20,000 nt of DNA from Sphaeroforma arctica JP610 (lineage: Eukaryota): assembly GCF_001186125.1 (NCBI RefSeq), contig NW_014040153.1, forward strand, positions 46,022 to 66,021. Direction: 5' to 3'. Below, one piece after another: positions 1 to 19,436 of this stretch. The notes below the pieces were generated by a model, which was not told the DNA's origin, made no database searches, and saw only the letters and a program-made list of their open reading frames with translations. Positions within the stretch are counted from its first letter, which is position 1. Every line of letters starts with the position of its first letter. The position numbers and the translations under genes were made by a program.

Positions 1-362
1 GTGGCAAGTTATTGGTTAAGACAATAACTAAGGACATCAAGAGTATTTTTCTTTTCTTCTAAAGCTAGGATTTTATGAGTCTCTCGGATTCGCCCCAATG
101 AAACATACCATAGTTTCTAATAGAGCGACAACGAAAAACTAAATAAAATCCCTTCGGCGAAAACAGTACTGAGAGGATTATATATAGGCAATGTCTCAGC
201 CTCACAATCCCTCAGAGTATTGCTGTTTTCACGAGGCATACCTAACTTTACTAAAAGTCTTATTTCGTTTATTTACTTTGATATTTTCACGATACTTAGA
301 ATTTACCTACGTGTTTATTTACTCTAAGGCGTTAATATCGCCGTAATAGACCGAATCTTACA
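1..362 (+). repeat. 5' LTR of E1 (3' part only)
   Basis: Aligns with ~7467-7792 with scattered substitutions and two indels. Ends ...GAATCTTACA. Confidence 0.92.
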
Positions 363-460: not shown

Positions 461-2288
461 ATGACCAAGAAAGACAATACTCCTTTTAAAAAGCGTAGAG
501 CTGAAAAGAAGAAGATGGAGAGAGAAGCCGCTAGCGCTGCCGCAGAAGCAACCGCTGCCGCTGCTAAGAAGTGATACAAGGGACACGTCTCAAGACGCCC
601 CAACCCATTCGTCTGACAAAATTCAGAAAGAAAAGTTCACAATTGTAAGGGAGTCCCCAATTATAAGGGACAAGGACAAATCTCAGAAGGAACCTATAAT
701 GGAACCAGAGGAAGAGGCAAGCTCAAGTGGCAACCCCGAATCTACGTCTAAGACTACTAAGCTAACGCGCATAAGTAAGTTAGATACTGAAAACACTGAT
801 CTTAAGAATAAGTTAGCTACCCTTAAGAAAGACTTGACTGTTGAACATGTAGATCGATTGTAAACATCAGGAAAACATACACAGGACTTACCGCCACTTT
901 TACCCAATTGGGATGACAAACGTCGGAAACCAGTTAAGACTGGGTATGTTATCCAAACGCATGAATCACCCAAGATTATAATACCAACCACTATCCGAGG
1001 AACAGCGCACCGAAAGGCCTCGACTATGGCCTTTACAAGGGGTAATAAACACCCCCGTAGACGTGTTAACGAAGTTGAATTTAATCGCTTCGATCGCACA
1101 GCACTACATCAACTCGCAGCGGATTTTCGCTCTGACGAGGTGACCGAACTTAACAAATCGGTCGACGATTATACCATTAAAATGGAAATCGCCCACGATG
1201 CGCATCATGCTGAGGATGTATCATATTTTGCTAATATGATAGCGATTAAGCAAACGCGCATCGATCAGCTACTTCAGGCCCAACGTGGACAAGACTACAA
1301 GGATAACCAGAAGTACAAAGGACAGATCAGTCGACTTAAGTAGAACTGGGATGCCAACAGTAAGCAAGTCGAGTTTATAAACAGCCATGACCTCGACACG
1401 CTAACCCGTACGCTTAATGCGTTTACGGTCATGCTGGAGACGAATGATATCGCTCTCCAGCAAAGGATATCTGCTTTAATGCAGACGTTTGACCCTACAG
1501 GTACAAGTTATTTGATCCTGCAGCGACACCAACATGAGCTAGACACTTGTCGTGACTGGCCAGCTGTATGTTGGTTGGCTACATCCTTGTTAAGTAAGGA
1601 CATGCGTAACCCAGGACTGAGTTCAATTTTAACTGAACCAGTTGAGAACACGCCCATTCAGAGATATATTCTGAAGCTAGATGCTGACCTGAAACGTCCA
1701 GATATAACAAAGGACAAGGCACGGTGATGGTACGAGTCCCTGGTTATGCACGTGTTCTGTAAAAACATAGGAAATAACGACCGTGAGAGCCTGTACACCG
1801 AGTTGCGACGTAAACACGCGACTGAGGCTCGAGACAAGGGACATGAAACAAAGTTTCATCTATCCCGACTTACGTGGGAACAGTTTTATGATACTGTATC
1901 CACCCTTTTCCCCGCACACCGAGTAGCATCGAAGGGAAAAGTGGCTGTTAAGAAGCCGCGGGAGCACACCGATCACGGATACGTATCCAGGTAGACCTCT
2001 AACGAGAGACCCCAACATACACGTGCTCGCGACTCCACTCTATCCACGCGACCCAATAAACGGGCACGCGCGGAGGCGAGGGACAAGGAACCTCCATTTA
2101 AAGAGATTAAGAAATGTGCCGATGCACAGTGTGGGTATGACATGTACCAAATAACCCCTAACGGATATTGGAATGGTAGACATGCATCCATCTGTACACA
2201 CTTTCTTATTAAGTGCGACAAGTGTGAGAAGACAAATGGCTATCACACTAAGTCTTGTGACAAAGAGCCCAACATTAAGGTGGAGTGA
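461..2288 (+). pseudogene. gag: gag-like region of E1 with C-terminal Cys/His clusters
   Basis: ATG at 461 (MTKKDNTPFKKRRAEKKK...). ORF pieces at 1026, 1431 and 1746 share one frame, separated by single stops. Ends CADAQC..H..C and CDKC..H..C directly upstream of the protease. Confidence 0.7.
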
Positions 2289-2339
2289 AGGTACTACCAG
2301 GTACAATCGTTACACAGATAATACAACGACTCTTTAGAT

Positions 2340-2650
2340 GAGCATGTAATAATCCCTGTATACTGCAATGGAAATAAAATCCTTGCGTTGATTGATCCTG
2401 GTTCAGAAATTTCATGTATATCCGATCGCTTTGCATTAATGAAAGATATCGAAAGGAGAACACAAACAACTCACCTCATTTTAGTTGATGATAAAACTTC
2501 TAAGTGTGATACCATGGCCACATATGTTAAAATTTCCCTGGCCGATGATAGGATCATCACTACCCAAGCTGTAATAGTTAAGATGTCACAGAAGTACGAC
2601 AATATAGTCGGAATGAGCGATTTACTCACTCTAGGTATAACCGTAGCTGG
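2340..2650 (+). pseudogene. pol: retroviral-type aspartic protease of E1
   Basis: HVIIPVYCNGNKILALIDPGSEISCIS ... YDNIVGMSDL. DPG is a variant of D[ST]G. Same frame as gag. Confidence 0.85.
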
Positions 2651-2899
2651 TCTACCAAATAACATAGATCCATTAAAGGATCAGTCAGACAATAACTGTC
2701 TGAATTCATATAAGCCCCCGTCATACACAGTCAAGGCATTAACACCTGACTTTGCGAACAAAATCATGGATCTGATTCTAGTAAATAAGAAGATAAAGAT
2801 CACAGATTGAGCAAAATTACGTTTTAACGACGGGTATGTCAGCCTTGACTTAACCAAGGTGGACTTTACACAGTTAAAGTGTCCCTCAAGGAACTATGT

Positions 2900-4130
2900 A
2901 TCCTGGAGACACGAGGCTGTGGTAATAGAACAAGTTGAGAAATGGCTAGCAGATGGAGTTTTTGGCACTGCTAGCCGTAGACCAACATAACTCTGACGGA
3001 TCGTTTAAGAAAGTCAGGGTATATTTAAATATGAGTCCAATAAAAATTATATTGCCGACTCATAGCTTTCACTTACCTCGTATTATCGAGCTACTGCGAA
3101 GGGTGGAAGGTGCTACAGTATTTACAACTATAGACCTTACACAAGGAAACCATCAAATGCAGGTATATGAACCACATCGTAAATACTTTAGTTTTACGTG
3201 GAAAGGTGAACAATACAGGTTCAGAGGTACACCTTTCGGGTTACACTCTTTACCAGCATTCTTCCAACAAGTAATGGAAGAAATGTTTGCAGACTTGCCT
3301 AACTTGCAAGTTTACATAGATGACATAGTCATCTTTTCCAAAACTAATGGTGAACACGCCGCATTAGTCAGACGAGTCCTTTAGAGACTCAACGAGCAAA
3401 ACTTCAAGATTAACGAGAAGAAATATCACTTCGCTATGAGCGAAATACAGCTCTTAGGCTACCGATTATCTGGGGAAGGTATTAAAATCGACCCCGGTAA
3501 GGTAGCACACCTGTTATATTGGCGAACACCAACTACATGAAGAGATGTTAACAGCATGTGTGGGTTTGTAAACTTCTTTTCAGATGAAGCACCACACTTA
3601 GCTGACTACCTTAAACCTTTTGGACACTTAAGATGTCATAAAGGCAAACTAGGATACTTGTGGACTAAAGAGTGTGATGACGCATTTAAAGCCCTCAAAC
3701 ACGCAGTCCAGCAAGCACCTGTTGTACAAGGACCAGTCGATGGCGTGCCGTTTGAAATAGCAACGGACGCCTCCGACTTAGCCTTAGGAGAGGAGTATTA
3801 TATCAGGTTATAGATAACAAACCCAGATATATACAATTCTTTGGTCGAGCAATGAATGCTTCACAGTTGAATTACCCAACAGTTAAACAAGAGCTATTAG
3901 CCACAGTGGCAGCTCTAACACACTTCCGATATTACTTATACAGAACAGCATTTACGCTGATGTGTGATCAGAAATCTCTTCAATATATGAAAGAGATGAA
4001 CCCCGACTCACAATTACTAAGTCGCTGGCATGATACAATATCAAAGTTTCATTTTGATATAAAACATCTGCCAGGAATACATAACCATTTACCGGATATG
4101 TTATCACGCTTCGTACCGGACTCTAATAAA
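2900..4130 (+). pseudogene. pol: reverse transcriptase and RNase H of E1
   Basis: VFTTIDLTQGNHQ, TPFGL, VYIDDIVIFS, LLGYRLS. RNase H: IATDASD, YPTVKQELLA, CDQKSL, HLPGIHNHLPDMLSR. Stops at 3382 and 3538 and a frameshift near 3795. Confidence 0.95.
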
Positions 4131-4154: not shown

Positions 4155-4843
4155 GACTAGAAATATAATCCCAGGTGGTTTAAACTGGCTCAAAAGATAT
4201 TTGGGCCACATACCATAGATATGTTTGCTGCACATCATAATGCACAACTATCCAATTACAGGACTTTAAATCATCCTTTGGGAGACACCTTTCAAATAGA
4301 CCTCTCCAAACATAATGTGTGGGCTAATCCACAATGGCAGTTAATTGCCCAGCTATTAAATTATATTCATATACCTAAAGCTACTATCACGTTGTGTTGC
4401 CCATTATGGAGTAAAGATCCATGGCTTAATAAATTGATNNNNNNNNNNNNNNNNNNNNNNNNNNNNNNNNNNNNNNNNNNNNNNNNNNNNNNNNNNNNNN
4501 NNNNNNNNNNNNNNNNNNNNNNNNNNNNNNNNNNNNNNNNNNNNNNNNNNNNNNNNNNNNNNNNNNNNNNNNNNNNNNNNNNNNNNNNNNNNNNNNNNNN
4601 NNNNNNNNNNNNNNNNNNNNNNNNNNNNNNNNNNNNNNNNNNNNNNNNNNNNNNNNNNNNNNNNNNNNNNNNNNNNNNNNNNNNNNNNNNNNNNNNNNNN
4701 NNNNNNNNNNNNNNNNNNNNNNNNNNNNNNNNNNNNNNNNNNNNNNNNNNNNNNNNNNNNNNNNNNNNNNNNNNNNNNNNNNNNNNNNNNNNNNNNNNNN
4801 NNNNNNNNNNNNNNNNNNNNATACTATAATATGTCGTATAGGT
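4155..4843 (+). pseudogene. Dam-like N6-adenine DNA methyltransferase domain in E1 pol (interrupted by the gap)
   Basis: In frame with RNase H: D*KYNPRWFKLAQKIFGPHTIDMFAAHHNAQLSNY...DTFQIDLSKHNVWANPQWQLIAQLL...ATITLCCPLWSKDPW. The C-terminal strand TIICRIG follows the gap. Confidence 0.8.
4439..4820. other. assembly gap (382 N)
   Basis: Run of N. Confidence 1.
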
Positions 4844-4958
4844 CCCATTGGAACAACCAAATGGACCCCTTCTGAGACCTTCCTTAACAAGGTCAAAGAA
4901 TCTGATATTCCACTCTCTACCCAATTGAACGCTAAGCAGTTCAAAAGCAATACAGCAC

Positions 4959-6359
4959 TTGAAGTCTGCGCACAAAAAAATACAATCTACTAATGACACT
5001 ACTGATAAGAAGCGTCAGTCTCTAGCTAGGACTCTGATTAATAACATACAGTCCAAGCCCGAGGTCTTTCAAACTCTATTTCTAAAGGGATTAATGAAAG
5101 ACAATCCTGAAGCGTATACACGTATAATGCGACTACTTAATAAGTCAGGTGTATCTAACGCACATGAGCGCACTTATGACACTCATGCGAAAGCAGGACA
5201 TGAGTCTGGAAACACTACAGACTTGGAGACCACGCAAGTAGATTCTCAACACCCTACCTTTATTCTGGAGGAGCAGAATGATGAAAACATTCTTGCTTGG
5301 CTGACGCAAAACCATAAGCTGAAGCACCAGAACGTAGTAGACGCACTTAAAGATGCGAAGCGAAATGGGATCGCGCACCCTATGCTGACAACTTTAGTTG
5401 ACAGAGTATATCAGTCATGTACAGACTGTGATCTCAATCAGATCAAGCGCTATGGGTTCGCACCGCTTAAGAGTGTGACTGAAGATGTTCAATGGCGCAG
5501 GGTCATCATTGATCTGACTGACCTGCCCACGTCCGAACACGCAGACGACCTTTACGTATGCCACTTCTTTGATGTGGCGTCACGGTTTATTTTGCTCTAT
5601 CCATTAAAGGATAAGAATACGCAGACCGTGGCAGAATTATGTTGCCAAGTCTTTGCTGACCACGGGTGGCCAGGTATTATGTTCACTGATAACGGTAGTG
5701 AGTTCTGCGATGACGTAATGGAAACGCTAGTACTCGTATCAGGCATATGCAATAAGAGAGGTGTGCCATATAAGTTGCAAACGCAAGGCGCGAATGAAAC
5801 GCGCCATAGAAGATTTAAGTACATCTTGCGTACTGCATTGACGGATGATGCAGATGATTGGCCGTACTACCTTAAGTGGGTACAAACACAGATGAACGAA
5901 TGTGCTGATCCGGTTACAGGAACTACAACCACTCACTATTTTCGTGGCACATATAGTGAGTTACAATTACCCTTTAACAAGGACGAACCTGATCACCATG
6001 AGTTACCATGGTTAGAGAAGGTACAACGTACTTATAACGTTGTATATCCTTGCTTGCGAGAAATACGCAATATAGCCTTATTGAAAAGGCAAAAGCGTTG
6101 GAACACTACCAAGAAGATAGCAGAGTATCAGGTCGGTGACAGAGTTAACATCCGTCAACGTAATCCCGATGCTACTGTATTATCATCTAAATGGATAGGT
6201 CCATATATAATCTCTGTAGCAGACACTAAAAGTGGAATGTACGAGGTAAATAACCCCGATGGTTCTAGTGCGCTTCATATAGGCACAAGTCGTATTCCGA
6301 CTACAGAGATTATACTCGCAAGAAGACATGACTCTAATGCCCCTCTTGATCGTTCTTAA
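4959..6359 (+). pseudogene. pol: linker and DDE integrase of E1
   Basis: HKLKH...CTDC zinc finger, VIIDLTD, FTDNGSEF, GANETRH and SKWIGPYII (GPY/F). This part is an open frame but belongs to a disrupted polyprotein. Confidence 0.93.
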
Positions 6360-6678
6360 TTTAAAGACATTATATGGAGAACGGATAAGGGAGGCTATAC
6401 ATACTATCGTACACGCTTTATAGACGGTACAATAGCTGAGTTAACTTCAGATGCGTTCGATAATCAAGACTATTTAAAAGCCTTTAATCGAAGAGATTAT
6501 ACTCGCAAGAAGACATGACTCTAATGCCCCTCTTGATCGTTCGGAATTTAAAGACAGTATATGGAGAACGGATAAGGGAGGCTATACATACTATCGTACA
6601 CGCTTTATAGACGGTACAATAGCTGAGTTGACTTCAGATGCTTTCGATAATCAAGACTGTTTAAAAGCCTTTAATCGA
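6305..6678 (+). repeat. 187-bp tandem duplication covering the chromodomain-like end of E1 pol
   Basis: 6305-6491 and 6492-6678 are nearly identical. Encodes EFKDIIWRTDKGGYTYYRTRFIDGTIAELTSDAFDNQDYLKAFNR. Confidence 0.93.
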
Positions 6679-7036
6679 AAATGGCCTGCATAAGTCACAA
6701 GCTGAAAAAGATAGCATGTTTCCATCGTCTGAAGGAACGGAAGTTAAAACGTATCCGCCTACAGCATTTATCCCGAGCTTTAATGCTCATCCTTCATATG
6801 TGTTTAAGACACTGAAGCGTAAGAAACGTCCAGTCGACCACCACGGACCTACTGGACCAAAGCCCAAAACTCACAGGGTAACCGAGAACGTTTAACTTCT
6901 CCGCCTGAGAAACATTAATTATATGTTATGCTACTTAAATGTTTCGACCCGTCTTTTTCCTTTCTCGCTTTTTGACCCATAATCAGCTTGAGTGAGCAAC
7001 TTGCTTCTCACGGGTCTCAAAGCTGGGTGAGGGCTG

Positions 7037-7792
7037 TGTAATAAGCCGGGCCTCCACATTAGACTCTATGTTATAAACGTACTCTTAAGCAGTACGTAAA
7101 TTATAAACGTACTCTTAATAGTACGAGGAACTCAAGTTTCCTAACTGTACTCTTAATAGTACGAGGAACTTAAGTTTCCTAAAATGGTTTTTAATGGTTT
7201 AATTAATTAATACCTTTTCCATTTTATATATCAGATATTTGGACGAGGCCATTAAAAGGCCCCAGCAAAATACCAAACATAAGAGTTGGTCTAGTTCTAT
7301 TAATAGAACCATATTTACTTTCCATCTTTATTTATATCTGAATACTTCGGTAGCGAGATGGCTCAACCGAATATAGGTTTCTAGGGACTATGTTACCTAG
7401 TTGATCCTCCGATCAGCCAACTAGATGTGCCAGTCTGATGAAGGCTAAGTCGGTAATTCTTGATAAGTGGCAAGTCAATAACTAAGGACATCAAGAGTAT
7501 TTTTTCTTCTTCTAAAGAAAACCCCAATGAAACATACCATAGTTTCTAATAGAGCGACAACGAAACACTAAATAAAAACCCTTCGGCGGAAACAGTACTG
7601 AGAGAAATATATATAGGCAATATCTCAGCCTCATAATCCCTCATAGTATTGCTGTTTTCACGAGGCATACCTAACTTTACTAAAAGTCTCGTTTCGTTTA
7701 TTTGCTTTGATATTTTTTACGATACTTTGAACTTACCTACTCGTTTATTTACTCTATGGCGTTAATATCTCCTTAATAGACCGAATCTTACA
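7037..7792 (+). repeat. 3' LTR of E1 (~756 bp)
   Basis: TGTAA...TTACA termini, preceded by the purine-rich tract GGGTGAGGG. The 3' part matches 1-362. Confidence 0.88.
7071..7183 (+). repeat. palindromic tandem units in the U3 region of the E1 LTR
   Basis: GTACTCTTAA(T/G)(C)AGTACG three times and AGGAACT(C/T)AAGTTTCCT twice. Confidence 0.8.
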
Positions 7793-8670
7793 AAGACTCC
7801 AGCCGACGTTGAACGCTTCAAAGCACAACTTCTTTCGGAATTCGACTGCTCTGTCCTCGGCAAACCCACCTGGCTTCCCGGCTGTCGCATTATCACTAAC
7901 GTTGATTCTACTAGCATCGTCCGAACCTCATACATTAATGAGGCCCTCGAGCACTTAGATATCCCCACCGCTCATCCAGTCAACACCCCCCTTCCGACTC
8001 CTTTTACTACCCATACCGCGAACTCGTCGGCACCCTTCACTACCTCTTTATCCTAGCGCGCATCGATATCACCATCGCCGTCAACAATCTCTCACGTTTC
8101 ATTTTCAACCCTATCGAAGACCACTGGCTCGCTGCCTGTCGCGTCCTCCGCTATCTCCGAACCAGACCCACGCTTGGCCTCGAGTACAGCAAAACACCCC
8201 AACCGCTCTCCACTGACGCCTACGCTGATTCCGACTATGCCAGCTGCTTCACTACCCGTCGTTCCACCACCGGTTACGTCATTCGCGTATGTAGCACACA
8301 AGTGATTTGGAAAGTAAACGCCAAAAACTGTCAGCACTAGCACTGCTGAAGCCGAATACTTTACTGCCAGTGAAGCCGCTAAACACATACAGTGGCGCCG
8401 CAACTTCTTAACTGAACTTGGCTTTACCCCCGATGCCCCCACTGATATCCATAGCGATAACCAATCCGCCGTACATGTCATCCCCAACTCGGGCACTCCT
8501 AAGCAGCTGAAGCACGTCGTGTGTTCGCGTTCACCATATTCGTGACCTCCAGGACCAAGGTGTCACCGCCACCAAATACGTTAACTCTGCCGATAACATC
8601 GCAGACACCTTGACTAAGAGCCTTCCTCGACCCACCCACTCTAAACATACATCTAACACACTCACCGCCA
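7793..8670 (+). pseudogene. pol: Copia RT C-terminus and RNase H (frameshifted)
   Basis: FKAQLLSEFDCSVLGKPTWL, DITIAVNNLSRF, RVLRYL, AYADSDYA, RRSTTGYV, STAEAEY, SDNQSA, KHV, NIADTLTK. Confidence 0.93.
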
Positions 8671-8804
8671 TCCCCGACCCTGATCAACCGTCTCTTGTTG
8701 CAACACTAGCACATTCGTTCAATAACAACCATACACACATTACCAACACAACATCGTCCATACCTTCAGGAGAGCTCCGCCCGATCGATGCTCACCGCCA
8801 TCCG

Positions 8805-9526: not shown

Positions 9527-9709
9527 TGTTGAGACGAATTTATACGACTCAAATCCTAAAACCCCAATAAGCCCAAAGTATATTACGGTTCATATTCTGG
9601 CCGAATAATTGTAATAATATCTTCAAAGAGCACATGATAATTATTATACTATATACCCAATATGTAATATGATAATGAAGTTACTCCGTTAAGCAAATGT
9701 ATATTTCAA
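9527..9709 (+). repeat. 3' LTR of Copia A (~183 bp)
   Basis: Follows the PPT. Aligns over its length with the reverse complement of 12486-12668. The 3' terminus is slightly degenerate. Confidence 0.85.
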
Positions 9710-9874: not shown

Positions 9875-9990
9875 GTGGTGTCAAGAGTGGAATCTTAAAT
9901 TTATCCACATTGTTTTAGAAGTTTTTGATGATGTTCACTTTGTTGTAATCTGTACCTATTCGACATATTATAGTATGTCGCCAGGGCACC
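9875..9990 (-). pseudogene. relic of an E1-related Gypsy: MTase C-terminal strand plus linker
   Basis: PWRHTIICRIGTDYNKVNIIKNF*NNVDKFKIPLLT resembles E1 TIICRIG...FLNKVKESDIPLST. 22 of 23 nt match 4821-4843. Confidence 0.7.
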
Positions 9991-10074
9991 ATTTGAACTG
10001 TTCAGGTACAGATTGGCTCGTAACGAACCATTAGCAAAGTATCTAAAATAAATATTTACAGTCTATGACTTTCT

Positions 10075-10755
10075 CTGACAAAATTGTTTCAATTTTCAAT
10101 TTAAGAGCCTTCGGTTTTGTGATGATTTATTAAAGGGTTAAGAAGAGGGGGATCGTCTCGAGTATTAATTGTTGTCAAAAGATATCCTTTTCAAACTGGT
10201 CATTAGTTTTAATGTCTACATCGTAGCTCGCGTGGTCGGCATTACTTCTTTGTAGAAACATACCAGAATAGTGGATCATAAATTCATTTTCTGGTTCTAT
10301 CATTTTGTTGAACACCCGCGACATAACCGTGTTAACACAACGTCTCCAGATTATTGACAAGCTGTGGGTTTTCACGACCACCACTCTATTTAATACCAGG
10401 TTTTAGGGGTTTAGGGTTTAGGGTTTAGGTACCTGACAAAATCGTTTAATTTTCAATTTAAGAGCTTTCAGCTTTGTAGTAATTTATCAAAGTGTTAAGA
10501 GAGGGATTGTCTCCGAGTATTAATTGTTGTCAAAGGATACCTTTTTCAGACTGGTCATAATAGTTTCAATTTCTAGCTCGTAGCTAGCGTGGTCGGTATT
10601 GCTTCTTTGTAGACACATACCAGAATAGTATATCATAAATTAATTTTCTGGTTCTATCGTTCTGTTGAACACCCGCGACATAACCGCGTGAACACAACGT
10701 CTCTAGATTATTGACGAGCTTTGGGTTTTCACGATCACCACACTATTTCATACCA
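10075..10755. repeat. diverged tandem duplication, period ~358 bp
   Basis: 10075-10398 aligns with 10433-10755. Confidence 0.9.
10399..10430 (+). repeat. interstitial telomere-like tract, about four TTTAGGG units
   Basis: GGTTTTAGGGGTTTAGGGTTTAGGGTTTAGGT. Confidence 0.75.
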
Positions 10756-12485: not shown

Positions 12486-12668
12486 TGTTGGAACATGTAT
12501 TTGCCTAACGAAGCAACTTTATTATCACTTCACATATTGGCTATATAGTATAACAATTACCATGTGCCTTTTTAAGATATCATTACAACTACTCAGTCAA
12601 AATATAACCCGTAATTTATTTTGGGCTTGTAAAGTTTTGAGGGTGAGTCTTATAAATTCGTCTCAACA
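12486..12668 (-). repeat. 5' LTR of Copia B (183 bp)
   Basis: Terminal inverted repeat TGTTG/CAACA. Inverted homolog of 9527-9709. Confidence 0.87.
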
Positions 12669-13494: not shown

Positions 13495-13624
13495 TACGCG
13501 TGTCGGTGTGTCCGTCGAATGCCCAAGCAGTTTCTCATGTCGACACCCCCTCAAGCCAGCGTATAATGTATTCGAGTTTACCCGTGTCGTCATTCGTCCT
13601 GTGTTTGATAACATGACGGAATGC
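13495..13624 (-). pseudogene. chromodomain of E2
   Basis: AFRHVIKHRTNDDTGKLEYIIRWLEGVST*ETAWAFDG, in a frame not shown in the ORF track. Confidence 0.75.
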
Positions 13625-14764
13625 GGAGCCCCCTTCTTGTCAGAGATGCCCATATCTATGTGTATGGTCATAGCTCTCACCGTTACAGCTCGTAACACCA
13701 TATGGACCAATAACGGTGGCCGTCTCTCTGGTTTCACCATCACTACTTCGTCTGTATCGAAGTGCACCAGACCATGGGGGTGAAGACGATCGAATGTCTT
13801 CATTAGCTTGTATACGGCTTGGTAATCTTGTGCAACGTGGGTGGAGTTGTGTACTGTAACTGAGGTCAAGTCGTTGAGCCCAAATGTCATTGGTAACCAG
13901 TTATTGCTCAGGTACATCGTCGGTTCAATCAGCAAACGGAACATGTCGGCGGCCGAAATATACGCTAAACGGAGCGCTCTTATGTCGTCGTGAGATACGT
14001 AGATTCTGGTGAGTATCGTAAAGAGTAGGCGTTTGTCCCAGGCCTGGAGTATCGCCTCGCAGTAGAAACGTATCGACCGTGTTATCTATTTGTACCGACG
14101 TTCAGTAGCGCCGAGAACTTGGGTTCGATAAAGTGGTGAGGCTTTATAAAGTATCCCAACCACTTTGACAAGTGGGGCCACCAGTTGGTGAATGCTAGTC
14201 CTATATCCGTTTGCAGTCTGTGTAAGAAGCCATGTTCGCCAGATATCGCCTGTAACGTGCGAGCGGTCGTCTCCATGGACATATCAGGTGTAGCACGTAA
14301 AACTGAGTACCCCGATGCAACGACTAACTCATGCAGAACAAATTTATCCTGTTGGATAGATGTTACCGGCATCGAAATGCAGTCGACCTGGAGATGTGAT
14401 CCCAGAGGTACTGGGCGTCGAAGCTGATCACAGGATGAAACCTCTCGTCCGAAGAGTATTGTCCCAAGCGCTGCCAGCATTGTCCTTTGATTTATGTAGC
14501 CAACTCAAATGCCCCGGGCCAGACATGTCCGTTCTATTGCAACTGTTGGCCTGTGTCCTATTCATGGTGTGCTTGTGTGAGCTGTGTTCGGCGCTGGTGT
14601 TCCGCTGGTGTTCCGTTAATAAAGGCCGGTTGTGCAACGTCGCTTGCTATCGCCACCGAAATCTCTCGTACGGCGTCCATATATTGTTGGTATGGCATGC
14701 GACGAGGCTCTGCATATTCCAGACGTTGAGTAAAACTCTCCGTCAATCGGAAGACCGATGATGG

Positions 14765-15150
14765 TCCTACGTGTGCGACTACTGTATGGCCCCATTGAAT
14801 CTTGCCGCAAGGCTATTTTGCATATTTCAAGAAAGTGTGCGGGCTACGAGGCACCAACACTAGCTCTGCTTGTAGTATCGAAACCACGGTGCTCTTGAGG
14901 TCCACGGTAGGCACACCGTCGTAGTATTCCCGTCTGATATAATTTTCCGGAGCGTACGGTGTATCAATTTCCACGGTCGTTTATTCAACCGTCCACTAGG
15001 GCCCATTCATTATCAAACGCTTCTCTGTGAATGTTTTTTGGTCCAGAAGTGGACAAGCTGTGTATTATGTGGCGCTGCGAATACGTCTATATTATTATGG
15101 CCAAATATCCATTGTGCCTGTTCGAAGTGGCTTAGAAATAATTTTTAGCA
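14765..15150 (-). pseudogene. Dam-like adenine methyltransferase domain of E2
   Basis: *KLFLSHFEQAQWIFGHNNIDVFAAPHNTQLVHFW / EAFDNEWALVDG*IN / PWKLIHRTLRKIISDGNTTTVCLPWTSRAPWF ... QWGHTVVAHVG (slashes mark frameshifts). Confidence 0.78.
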
Positions 15151-16659
15151 ACCTGCATAAAGGATTGCCGGTATATCTGTTTCAGCGGTGTTCATGTATC
15201 CGACTGAGCATGTCAGGTAGGGCGTTCTTCTCACCAAGAATATGTGAAATAGTGAAATTGAATGGCGCGATGATGTGATGCCAATGCTGCATCATAGGGT
15301 TGAGCTTGAGCCGGCTGTTCATGTATACTAATGCCTTGTGATTGGTAAACATTATAAACCGCTGGCCGTGAAGGTATTCCCGGGAGTGTGTCCACCCATA
15401 GACTATTGCTAGAAGTTCCTTCATTGGTGTTGCGTAGTACCGGATTGAGCATCTTACTGAAGAACATGAGGTAGTGCTTCTTGCCTTCGACCCATTGGAA
15501 TAATGCACCGTCTACCTCGTAATCTCTGGCGTCCGTTTCCAGGTTGAGTGGCATATCATCCACCGGAAAGTGGAGTGTTACGGTATTGACGATAGCGTCT
15601 TCATTGCATTTCATGCGTCTGATCAACGCTGGACGCCGTGGGGAAAGCGGACGTTTGTTGGCATGCCGTTCGGCATCAAACCTGCATCGTGAATCATCCA
15701 GGCACGGATGGAGCATGAATTCAAAGTGTGGATGGCCTAGATAGCCTAAAGACATGGGCGTGGGTCACAACAGTGTTAGGAAGCACTGGTCGAGCATGAA
15801 AAATCTCATCGTGGCGTGTGTGAAGCACAACGCTAAATTGAACATCAAGAAGTGTTGCTTTGGGATCTCAGATCGGCCGGTCATCGCGTTGGGGCGAGTG
15901 GTGGATGAGAACGGGTCGTACATTAGTGAGGATCGGATGGAATCCATCATGCGCATGCCGCCGCCCACGGATAAGGATCTCTTGGCCTAGTGGTATCACA
16001 CGATTGGTTATTGGAGCCAATACATCCCTGACTACTCTAGGATCATGTCCCCTATCTCGAATCGGAAGAAAGAAGTACCCTTTATGTGGGATCGGACGCA
16101 GCAGGCAGTCTACGATCGGATTCGGGAGGAGGTGGCCAAGGAAGGGGTGTTGGTCGAGCCAGGATTCGAAGACAAACTGGAGATGTATTGCGATGCCTGT
16201 GACTCGGTAGGAGTAAGTGGGAGGTTGTTTGCTCGGCGCAAGGGTAAGCTATGCCGTGTGGGGTTCTGGTCTTCGAAGTTCAGCCCGGCGCAGTTGGGCT
16301 ACCACATTACGGACAAGGAGGCTATAGCCATCGTGTATTGTCTTCATAAGTCCTGGAGGATTGTCAAGCGTTCGCGCCACCCGCTGACGGTGTTCACGGG
16401 CCATGAGCCGTTGGTGCGTATGCTAGCGCAAGACCCCACGTCGTATGAGTCCACGGTTAGATATAGATATATGGCTAGATACGCGCAGGTGCTGCGTGAT
16501 TTCGACACTATCCTAAAGCATGTGCCGGGAGAATTGAATCCAGTGGCGGATGTGCAATCTCGGCTGGTATACCAAATTGACCCAATCATGCGAGCGAGGC
16601 GTCTACCGGCGAAGGATAGAGCGCGTTGGGCTGAGCAAGCGGTGGTGAAGCCGGAGACA

Positions 16660-17055
16660 GAATCTTATGCAGTGAACAGGGCGCTCTTTGACAAGACCGG
16701 GGACAAGTTTGGTCCGTTTGACGCTGAAAGGTTCGCGCATCCAACGAATTATCGATGAAGCCGTACTACCAGCCTACCTTGGCTGGGGGTGTGTTTGCGT
16801 CGAGGACGTGGATGGGTCCACGTTAGTACTTTAACCCCAGGTGGTCAGACTTGGGCAAGGTTGTCACCAGGATTCGCAGGGACAAGGCTACGGTGACGAT
16901 GGTCTGTCCGTATGCACCGGAGGCACGGTGGTTTATGGAAATGGTACCTCTGCTGTCAGCAGATCCTATGGTGATATATCTCAAGTAGGGGATCTTCCTC
17001 CGACACGGGAATGAGCAGATGGATGCGTCAGGTTTTATTTCGCTGGTCTGCCATA
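16660..17055 (+). pseudogene. Dam-like adenine methyltransferase domain of E3
   Basis: In frame with RNase H: ESYAVNRALFDKTGDKFGPFDAERFAHPTNYR / MKPYYQ...GVFASRTWMGPR*YFNPRWSDLGKVVTRIRRDKATVTMVCPYAPEARWF...SLVCHM. Confidence 0.75.
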
Positions 17056-17819
17056 TGAGACATTACCGGGACCACAAGCTGCGTGGAGACTTCTGGGAGG
17101 AGTTGGAAGCTAAGCGGCCAGCTTGGGAGAAGCTGGCTGCTGCGGCAGTACTACGTGCGGAAGACGTAGTGTCCTGTATGACACAGAGTGGTGTCGTAGG
17201 GGCGGTAGCGCATCCAAGTGGGAAATCGGTGCGTAGAGGAATGCCAGCGGAGGAGGCTGGTATTGAAACAACCCCATGTTAGTGCAGTGAATGCACTAAT
17301 GTTTACCACTCAGTCTTTGCGGGCGGCTAAGGGTGTTCTGAATAAGTATCTGAAGCATGCGGAAGTATGGCTGGGAGGGGCATCTGCTAACCCTAGTGAG
17401 GGATCGCTGGGTGCGATGGCAGAAACTTGGCTGGAGTCAGCTGAGGTGAGCACGAGTGAGGGGTCGCTCGGTGCTATATACACTCGGAGTATGAGTGATA
17501 AGTCGCCGGTGCTTACGCGGCGTGCGCGCAAGGCAGCGGTGGTTGCGAACAGCCACCCGGTCTTGGAGGAAATGGACATTGATAAATCACAGGGTGATAC
17601 ATCAGTGGAGGACCATCCGCGAGAGTGTGAGGAAGCACTCACCAAACAGCAGTTAGTCCAGTTAGAGCAGAATCCGGCGGATGGTGTGCCACTGGATGAC
17701 GCGGAAGAGCCACCAGTGGATAAGCTGGGTGACAAGCTGTTGCGACAACGCTTGCGAAGCTTGAAGCGTTCTGTGTTTGGTGTGGAAGTGGGGGGGGTGA
17801 TGTCTTCGAGCGTATCGTT

Positions 17820-18950
17820 AGGTACATGCCAGTGCCAAGAGGCTGGATGATCTGGTGCGCAGGCTATGGGGTTGGGCTGGCATGAAAAAGATGTATGATC
17901 ATGTCCGGAAGAGCTGCAATGCGTGCCAGGCGTTCGCTGAGGAACTAGGCTTGGCGAAAGGCTTGCTGCTGCTGCCAGTGCGCCCATAAGAGGTCATGCG
18001 CGAGATAAGCATGAATTTCATGGACTTTAACACCGTTAACGGACAATCCAAGGTCTTGCTGGTAGTGGACACGCAGACTAGGATGTTGTTTGCGCGATTG
18101 TGTCCTGTATCGACGGATGGGCCAGGTGTGGTCCGCTTCTTAGAAAAGCATGTGTTGGCGTGGTGATCGCCGGCACGGCTGGTTATGGACGCGGACAAGA
18201 GGTTCCAGAATGACAATGTTAATCCATTCTGAGAACGGTGGGCATCGAACTACACTGGGTGACGGTCGACAATCATCAGAGCAATAGCAGACTGGAGATG
18301 TTGAGTAGGACAATGAAGGATTGGTTGCGCCGGGAGATTGAGGCTAAGGATGAATCGCCTCATGCTTGGTTACACTTAGTTTACGATATGGTGCGGGTGT
18401 ACTGGGTGACGGCCGACAATCATCAGAGCAACGGCAGACCGGAGACGTTGATTAGGACAATTAAGTATTGGTTGCGCCGGGAGATTGAGGCTAATGATGA
18501 ATCGCCTCATGCTTGGTTACACTTGGGTTCACGATATGGTGCGGATGTACAATACCACCAGGACCTCGGTGGCAGGGTTTGTGCCATATTTCCACCTGAC
18601 AGGGAGGGACTTTAATGTACAGGTTAGTCCGAAGTTACAGGACAGGGTGTTGTCCTTGTTGGAGTCAGAGCAAGGCACAGGCGATGGTCCGTGACGCGGT
18701 AGCAGCGGTCAGGGACAGGCGGGCTCGACTGGAACAGCAGACAAGTCGGCGGGAGGATGTCCCTCTGTTGGCAGTCTGCTCGAGGGTCTGGTATCGGCTG
18801 CGAGGGAAGTCTCACGACCTGTCTTCGCGGTGGGGTGGACCGGCGCGTGTAGTGGCGGTTCAAGCACCCTTTACGCATACGGTTGAGATGCCTGATGGAT
18901 CTCGCCGTACTTTCTTGAGGGAGGAGTTGAAGCCGCACGTTGAGAAGCTC
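17820..18950 (+). pseudogene. pol: integrase of E3
   Basis: Zinc finger remnant, core with the first catalytic D read as N (MNF), and a GPY/F-like motif. Several stops and frameshifts. Confidence 0.88.
18254..18548 (+). repeat. 147-bp tandem duplication inside the E3 integrase
   Basis: 18254-18400 vs 18401-18548. WVT(V/A)DNHQSN...SPHAWLHL occurs twice. Confidence 0.93.
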
Positions 18951-19436
18951 TCGGAGCAAGAGGAACGGCGCTCTGTGGTGGCTAATATATCATTCACATC
19001 TGACTGAGCAGCAGGATGGCTACCGTCAAGCGTTGGGTCATGCCATGCGTAGAAGACGCGTGTCTGGTCGGGTGAGCTTTGTTCAGCCTGGGGACGCTGG
19101 GAATTCTGGTGTGACGAGGCGAATCTGCCAGTTTATGCACCACTGGTGGACGGCGAAGACGGGAAGAAGGTGCTTGGTGAGGACTATCAGGTCTTGTTGA
19201 TGCGGGTGTTACCGCTGAAGAAGAGTCGTGATGTATTTAAGAGGAAGATCTTGAATGGCTTCGCTTTTGCACAGTCGGCGTTCTACAAGAAGCAGCATCT
19301 ACACTTGGGGTGAACTACAGATAGCAGATAATGTATCTGAGCTGCCGTCGCGTCATTAGTTATAGTGCCTGCGTTAGTTTGTTGACAAATTCTCAGACCG
19401 TTGAGAAGAACTCTATCCTCCACGAGGGGGTGATGA

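Follow-up and report, generated by a model that had tools for sequence, protein, structure and literature searches.

A decayed Ty3/Gypsy retrotransposon of Sphaeroforma arctica from a multi-copy family with a conserved PF05869 methyltransferase domain between RNase H and integrase

In a window of 20,000 nt from the genome of Sphaeroforma arctica JP610 (contig NW_014040153.1, positions 46,022 to 66,021, forward strand) we found an LTR element, E1, which is almost certainly a dead copy of a multi-copy Ty3/Gypsy family with a conserved PF05869 methyltransferase (MT) domain between RNase H (RH) and integrase (IN), i.e. a DAM-LTR. The sequence-only reading of this DNA had taken such an arrangement to be possibly new. 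However, DAM-LTRs have already been described, in five lineages, by Fernandez-Moreno et al. (bioRxiv 10.64898/2026.05.21.726589, a preprint of May 2026), who claim the first Dam domains in non-DIRS LTR retrotransposons; the architecture of E1 is thus already described, and the lineage of E1 apparently with it. Apart from a lumped sentence in the excerpt of PMC6338049, our literature search found no Dam domain in Ty3/Gypsy elements before the preprint. The ichthyosporean DAM-LTR lineage (Pirum, Abeoforma, Sphaeroforma) is described there as having a conventional Ty3/Gypsy organisation and no chromodomains. E1 shares with it this organisation, a DIRS-derived Dam domain in pol, the NPP motif and the absence of a Pfam chromodomain, and groups with Abeoforma whisleri proteins in both the reverse transcriptase (RT) and the MT tree; its clade-mates, in contrast, keep a divergent chromodomain-like tail.

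DIRS1-group retrotransposons with an MT domain were reportedly described by Goodwin and Poulter in 2004. The available part of Muszewska et al. (PMC3783388) also assigns such a domain to the DIRS1-group tyrosine-recombinase retrotransposons, and, as far as the excerpts go, it is the same PF05869 domain and lies directly 3' of RNase H. DIRS elements are without protease and DDE integrase and have a tyrosine recombinase and inverted or split repeats, whereas in E1 both enzymes are present, the LTRs are direct repeats and the RT is not of the DIRS type. Pol proteins with a DNA methyltransferase under purifying selection are known from KnitGypsy-Dnmt3 and SymbioDIRS-Dnmt3 (de Mendoza et al. 2018, PMC5890265, in excerpt), but their enzymes are, in that excerpt, C5-cytosine methyltransferases and unrelated to the E1 domain. 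For DAM-LTRs, the preprint reports that more copies are 6mA-marked and expressed, an association with AMT1, and a negative nanopore assay of other DAM-LTR and DIRS domains in dam- E. coli; PCIF1, which enters our argument below, has 0 mentions in its main text.

E1 starts outside the window, left of position 1, and ends at 7792 (Table 1). By Pfam its domains follow the order PR-RT-RH-IN, with the integrase 3' of RNase H, and the same holds for intact relatives. A DDE integrase and direct LTRs had been read downstream of the MT domain, and both are there: the integrase has D(35)E spacing (D 5688, E 5796), and the LTRs are direct repeats with TG...CA ends, 93% alike over the right 362 nt of the 5' LTR (alignment to 7472-7792: 320 columns, 21 mismatches, K2P 0.069). 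The left edge of the 3' LTR was placed by means of the terminal inverted repeat and the polypurine tract (PPT). The probable gag frame is interrupted at 861, 1341, 1725 and 1992, and no gag family was among the Pfam matches of the four E1 pieces scanned. The coding part of E1 holds at least nine premature stops and is shifted in frame near 2960, 3790 and 4980-5000, 187 nt are duplicated, and the two LTRs differ by 6.9%; we conclude that E1 is a dead copy. No TGG primer-binding site follows position 362 of the 5' LTR, and the window contains no tRNA genes. The leader at 363-405 holds a 14-nt perfect (28-nt imperfect) complement to 7190-7217 within the LTR, starting 15 nt from the LTR end. The self-priming duplex formed by the 16 nt next to the LTR is not better than that of shuffled sequences (90/200); pairing of the wider leader (363-410) was equalled or exceeded by 6/200 shuffles, a weak hint. 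E1 is inserted into what remains of a Copia-like RT/RNase H, which lies to its right at 7793-8700 and matches RVT_2 below the cut-off (E=0.0015).

Table 1. Features of E1 and of the two further DAM-LTR elements in the window
Feature	Position	Strand	Remarks
5' LTR of E1	1..362	+	right part only, left part outside window; end ...TTACA
Probable gag ORF of E1	675..2288	+	4 internal stops, Cys/His-rich end; assigned by its position
Aspartic protease of E1	2322..2810	+	DPGS at 2394; Asp_protease_2 E=1e-5
Reverse transcriptase of E1	2950..3582	+	RVT_1 E=5.5e-17; YIDD at 3313; stops 3382, 3538; frameshift near 2960
RNase H of E1, Ty3-type	3660..4110	+	RT_RNaseH E=5.6e-20, RT_RNaseH_2 E=6.3e-10; frameshift near 3790
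PF05869 (phage Dam / DIRS MT) N6-adenine methyltransferase-fold domain of E1 (predicted)	4155..4891	+	broken by N-run 4439-4820
MT motif D*KYNPRWF	4155-4181	+	in-frame stop 4158-4160
MT motif FGPHTIDMFAAHHN	4200-4241	+	RNase H frame
MT motif DTF	4284-4292	+	
MT motif WANPQW	4320-4337	+	NPQW where family has NPPW
MT motif CPLW	4398-4409	+	
MT motif DPW	4416-4424	+	
MT-IN linker of E1	4892..5300	+	poorly conserved, 23% identity P0002 vs P0169
Integrase of E1	5313..6359	+	HHCC-like region, DDE core, GPY motif 6192-6206, premature stop 6357; rve E=3.6e-8
Tandem duplication, 187-nt	6305..6678	+	across E1 integrase C-terminal tail
PPT-like sequence of E1	7021..7036	+	read directly, immediately 5' of 3' LTR
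3' LTR of E1	7037..7792	+	~756 bp, TGTAA...TTACA
E3, second DAM-LTR family	13560..15614	-	5'-truncated, badly decayed; RH - MT 15141-14756 - IN; tblastn with intact relatives
E2, third DAM-LTR family	15751..19430	+	5'-truncated; RT end - RH - MT 16657-17027 - IN-like motifs by eye

The motif series that had been taken for a Dam-like MT lies where it had been read, every motif in the frame of RNase H and downstream of the RNase H end HNHLPDMLSR (4080-4109). Indeed, the 92-aa E1 piece matches Pfam Dam (PF05869) with E=1.7e-4, at 21.7 bits still below the cut-off of 28.1, and an MT profile of our own, made from seven relatives with E1 and its two closest relatives left out, scores E1 at 90.7 bits compared to a maximum of 0.6 bits in 50 codon-shuffled windows. 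In view of these two scores the match cannot be put down to chance, and the placing of a DIRS-type PF05869 domain between RNase H and an integrase (rve E=3.6e-8) stands. The MT domain of P0002, an intact relative, reaches 30.7 bits against PF05869, above the cut-off. The DNA methyltransferase family phrog_111 matches 10/10 rows of the MT alignment, Pfam PCIF1_WW only 1/10 (E=0.054). A word-based search with the 92-aa piece gave 0/6 candidates, and PDB sequence searches with the MT domain or the MT profile found no methyltransferase. For E1, 'Dam-like' refers to PF05869, a phage family; lower structural scores go to E. coli Dam and T4 Dam (see below). A scrap resembling the C-terminal part of the MT domain (38% to P0002, E=0.002) lies at 9939-10043 on the minus strand.

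The extent first given to the domain, 4155..4843, was right as to its presence but not as to its end, which lies near 4890: residues 713-735 of P0002 match 4823-4891 at 65%. A run of 382 N (4439-4820) takes up 382 of the 689 bases of that first extent. Only ~33 residues (~100 nt) of the relative are missing at the gap, so the N-run exceeds what is required by ~285 nt: either it is too long or an insertion is concealed in it. Such a gap might suggest that an RH-MT piece of a DIRS element was joined over it, by assembly or nesting, to an unrelated integrase. We regard this as barely conceivable: the MT domain resumes past the gap, the RNase H is Ty3-type, the RT is not DIRS-like, and a single LTR pair encloses the whole of E1. 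Above all, two independent intact ORFs, P0002 and P0169, run collinear with E1 to the left as well as to the right of the N-run, which excludes a mis-join and refutes this reading.

Relatives were sought among 1.84 billion representative sequences. P0002 is a single ORF of 1,376 aa with the order RT-RH-Dam-rve, is 67% identical to E1 over RH and MT and 69% over the RT, and has Ty3 Gag-Pol as its best PDB match (E=3.4e-71). Among 21 relatives picked by hand from the 150 matches listed, with matches extending past RNase H, 11 carry RT, RH, Dam and integrase in one uninterrupted ORF by Pfam. The named ones, P0006, P0017 and P0125, come from the ichthyosporean Abeoforma whisleri and are probably the preprint's own sequences.

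We computed RT trees, a quick one of 73 rows (with 24 of 47 MT-less LTR proteins) and a careful one of 35 rows, both without named Ty3, BEL or retroviral references. The integrase-less RT-RH-MT proteins, which we call DIRS-like from their architecture, separate from all LTR-type RTs (100/100), and E1 falls into a 9-row clade made up of Dam-bearing LTR elements only, P0006 and P0017 from Abeoforma among them (100/99). The AU test rejects nesting of the E1 group in either DIRS-like subgroup (p-AU 3e-7 and 2e-50) and also rejects that the RTs of all DAM-LTRs share a single origin (p=0.0009); a position as the earliest LTR branch, beside the DIRS-like set, is not rejected (p=0.165). Judged from its sequence the RT of E1 is Ty3-like and not DIRS-like, and the initial Ty3/Gypsy assignment is borne out by the tree, by the rejected nesting and by the best named match. 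E1 as a member of the DIRS1 group itself was considered and rejected: protease and rve are present, the E1 pieces scanned contain no tyrosine recombinase match, and the RT lies outside the DIRS clade. The MT tree of 64 rows, whose bootstrap had not fully converged, places E1 in a 7-row clade with P0006, P0017 and P0125 (96/89). The subfamily of E1 (E1, P0002, P0169) is ~1.3 substitutions per site away from the Abeoforma proteins.

A metagenome scan gave 80 loci, 79 of them without integrase and one that combines MT and IN in a single ORF; of the long neighbouring ORFs tested at such loci, 3/7 encode a tyrosine recombinase. In two sequences, P0237 and the locus L023:2354-9736, the Dam domain lies 5' of the RT. 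L023 is a single 2,461-aa ORF of the order protease - Exo/endo/phosphatase (APE-like) - Dam - RT - RH - integrase, following a zinc-knuckle ORF, and an APE-like endonuclease within a Ty3-type pol is odd. At L018:1-5520 a frame of 1,840 aa overlaps an RT-MT ORF; it has a chromodomain at its end (E=1.7e-6) but no integrase match, and L018 is perhaps a chromodomain-bearing DIRS-like element.

Chromodomain-like segments were also found at the C-terminus of several clade-mates of P0006 in the Abeoforma clade, where Pfam overlooks them. In P0006 itself a divergent tail of this kind follows the integrase (1345-1398; own profile 28 bits, shuffle maximum 2.2 in 380), and P0169 has one at 1263-1315 (second profile 13.8 bits, shuffle maximum 4.4 in 400). 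Our profiles gave nothing significant in E1 (window 6360-6684) or in P0002, and Pfam Chromo has no match in E1, P0002 or P0169. The duplicated integrase tail of E1 (6305..6678) occupies the position of this segment in the clade-mates.

The window holds two more DAM-LTR elements, E2 and E3, which stand head to head and are mutually divergent, so that with E1 three DAM-LTR families are present. E3 (RT_RNaseH E=2e-12; 3' boundary read by eye) scores 48.4 bits with the MT profile and has a highest MT-tree identity of 36%; for E2 (RT_RNaseH_2 E=4.7e-16), which has a PPT-like sequence at 19421-19430, the values are 41.7 bits and 29%. Between these elements and E1, a short interstitial run of TTTAGGG-like repeats (10398-10430) separates the copies of a 325-nt direct repeat (10075-10398 and 10433-10755), and ~170-nt inverted repeats (80%; 9527-9709 and 12488-12668) enclose 2.8 kb in which the minus strand carries a broken coiled-coil ORF. 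The inverted repeat pair possibly represents a DNA transposon or the ends of another element.

That the E1 family is large and multi-copy is seen from contigs of public runs: 4,534 pieces of one run map to a stretch of 681 bases, a figure for depth and not for copy number. Contigs of runs that we guess to be RNA cover the stretch as well, though such coverage does not show transcription. At the in-frame stop of the MT domain and at the Gln of NPQW, >99% of the mapped depth in run X1 has another letter, and both lesions are therefore private to the E1 copy. Out of 30 listed variants, those that segregate in the family number 22, of which 11 are synonymous and 11 non-synonymous (pN/pS about 0.25, p=0.0014); the other 8 are found in the E1 copy alone (2 synonymous, 6 non-synonymous; pN/pS about 0.74). 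All are thresholded counts of non-independent contig variants with transition bias ignored. The MT domain thus appears to be under purifying selection in the E1 family. P0002 and P0169 are 67% identical in the MT domain, compared to 64% in RT, 77% in RH, 57% in the IN core and 23% in the MT-IN linker.

The domain might nevertheless have a job for which catalysis is dispensable, binding nucleic acid or SAM, or serving Pol as a structural spacer or as a module for interactions. NPP followed by a hydrophobic residue is present in 26/33 LTR-type and 14/28 DIRS-like domains, the sample being biased in favour of the query. It is missing from the other 7 LTR-type domains, including that of the intact close relative P0169 (CPPW), and from 14/28 DIRS-like domains, all still in open ORFs; the loss fits a non-catalytic job, as do the negative E. 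coli assay and the verdict of Iyer et al. (PMC4738411, excerpt), who place the DIRS1 MT in the PCIF1 clade and consider it likely inactive. However, 21/33 LTR-type domains retain NPPW itself, and the SAM-motif strand has its Asp in 10/10 aligned MT rows, again in a query-biased sample. We consider a purely non-catalytic job somewhat unlikely.

The earlier reading of the domain as an MTase is supported by structure prediction on P0002: the AlphaFold2 model of its MT domain (162 aa, 10-row alignment) has a pLDDT of 91.6 and shows a SAM-dependent methyltransferase fold with the motif-I strand Asp and the NPP-aromatic motif, where the E1 copy has NPQW and the upstream stop. Among predicted viral structures, phage DNA N6-adenine methyltransferases come first (E about 1e-8, TM 0.64-0.72). 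The predicted fold of the E1-family domain is that of an N6-adenine methyltransferase and is closest to Dam-family proteins of phages. These phage enzymes (PF05869 / phrog_111) are its best profile and predicted-structure matches, but they are stand-alone proteins with 15-21% identity and not domains of a polyprotein. The top solved structure, in contrast, is PCIF1/CAPAM (Foldseek E=5e-5; VIA-align Z 9.6, rmsd 3.2, 137 aligned), followed by the rRNA methyltransferases KsgA/Dim1/Erm, with E. coli Dam at Z 7.3 and T4 Dam at Z 7.2. PCIF1 (PDB 6irw, 6irx), at 14-15% identity, is a cellular RNA enzyme with ~480+ modelled residues and extra domains.

This ranking raises the question whether the domain could be a PCIF1-like RNA adenosine-N6 methyltransferase that acts on the element's own transcript, next to the cap or internally, and thereby helps with its stability, its packaging or the transfer of strands; the 6mA of genomic copies would then come from the host as a consequence of transcription. 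PCIF1/CAPAM as the top solved fold by two programs is in line with such an activity, as are the matches to viral PCIF1-like proteins (E about 1e-5), and an RNA substrate would account for the negative DNA assay. The PCIF1 clade assignment by Iyer et al. (PMC4738411, in the part available) points in the same direction; the corresponding part of PMC8931429 has nothing on PCIF1 acting on DNA. However, phage DNA methyltransferase models outscore any PCIF1 (E 1e-8 vs 1e-5), and because of this the rank of PCIF1 may only reflect that no PF05869 structure has been solved. Together with the single weak PCIF1_WW match and a domain of 162 aa that is far smaller than PCIF1 and has none of its additional domains, this makes a PCIF1-like transcript methyltransferase unlikely in our eyes. 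The additional domains of PCIF1 have a role in its cap pocket.

The domain could also stay on the integrase and methylate dsDNA of the target or host where the element inserts. It adjoins IN in the polyprotein, its phage relatives are annotated as dsDNA methyltransferases, and 6mA is enriched on insertions according to the preprint. But E. coli dsDNA remained unmethylated in the preprint's assay, DIRS elements carry the same domain without a DDE integrase, the MT lies 5' of the RT in L023 and P0237, and the linker between MT and IN is long and variable. We therefore judge methylation of the target site very improbable.

The reading we favour, at a little short of even chances, is that the MT domain methylates adenines on the element's own reverse-transcription intermediate. 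Pol, MT included, would be packaged in the particle and cut by the element's own protease, and the small MT, which to judge from the 162-aa model may hardly accommodate its own target-recognition domain, would reach its substrate via the neighbouring RT/RNase H and mark single-stranded cDNA or the RNA:DNA hybrid. A new insertion could then arrive with 6mA, which the host's AMT1 system would maintain as permissive chromatin, following the model of the preprint. Three things speak against free dsDNA as the substrate: E. coli dsDNA was not methylated, the domain is small, and DIRS elements use it although they have no integrase. On the other hand, the preprint's heterologous test in dam- E. coli was negative for methylation as such, the nearest solved structures are an RNA-cap enzyme and then rRNA methyltransferases, 7/33 LTR-type domains (P0169 included) have no NPP, and the DIRS1 MT is likely inactive according to the excerpt of Iyer et al. 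(PMC4738411). Moreover, the 6mA enrichment of the preprint is correlative and could be explained by host AMT1 marking transcribed copies.

The architecture of E1 is real and unusual, and its remaining value lies in what the domain methylates. To this our analysis contributes evidence for purifying selection on the MT domain in the E1 family and natural, intact ORFs that either have the catalytic motif (P0002, P0006) or lack it (P0169), and the structural pointer to PCIF1 suggests RNA, ssDNA and hybrids as candidate substrates rather than E. coli genomic DNA. It is rather unlikely, in our estimate, that the 'Dam' domains of DAM-LTRs and DIRS are PCIF1-like single-strand enzymes that act within the particle on the element's own RNA or RNA:DNA intermediate and not on dsDNA; if they were, a retrotransposon would carry its own RNA-cap or hybrid adenine writer beside RNase H, and the negative E. 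coli assay would be explained. If the MT marks the element's own replication intermediate, this would be a strategy by which a transposon, in 6mA-using hosts, arrives already marked as active chromatin.
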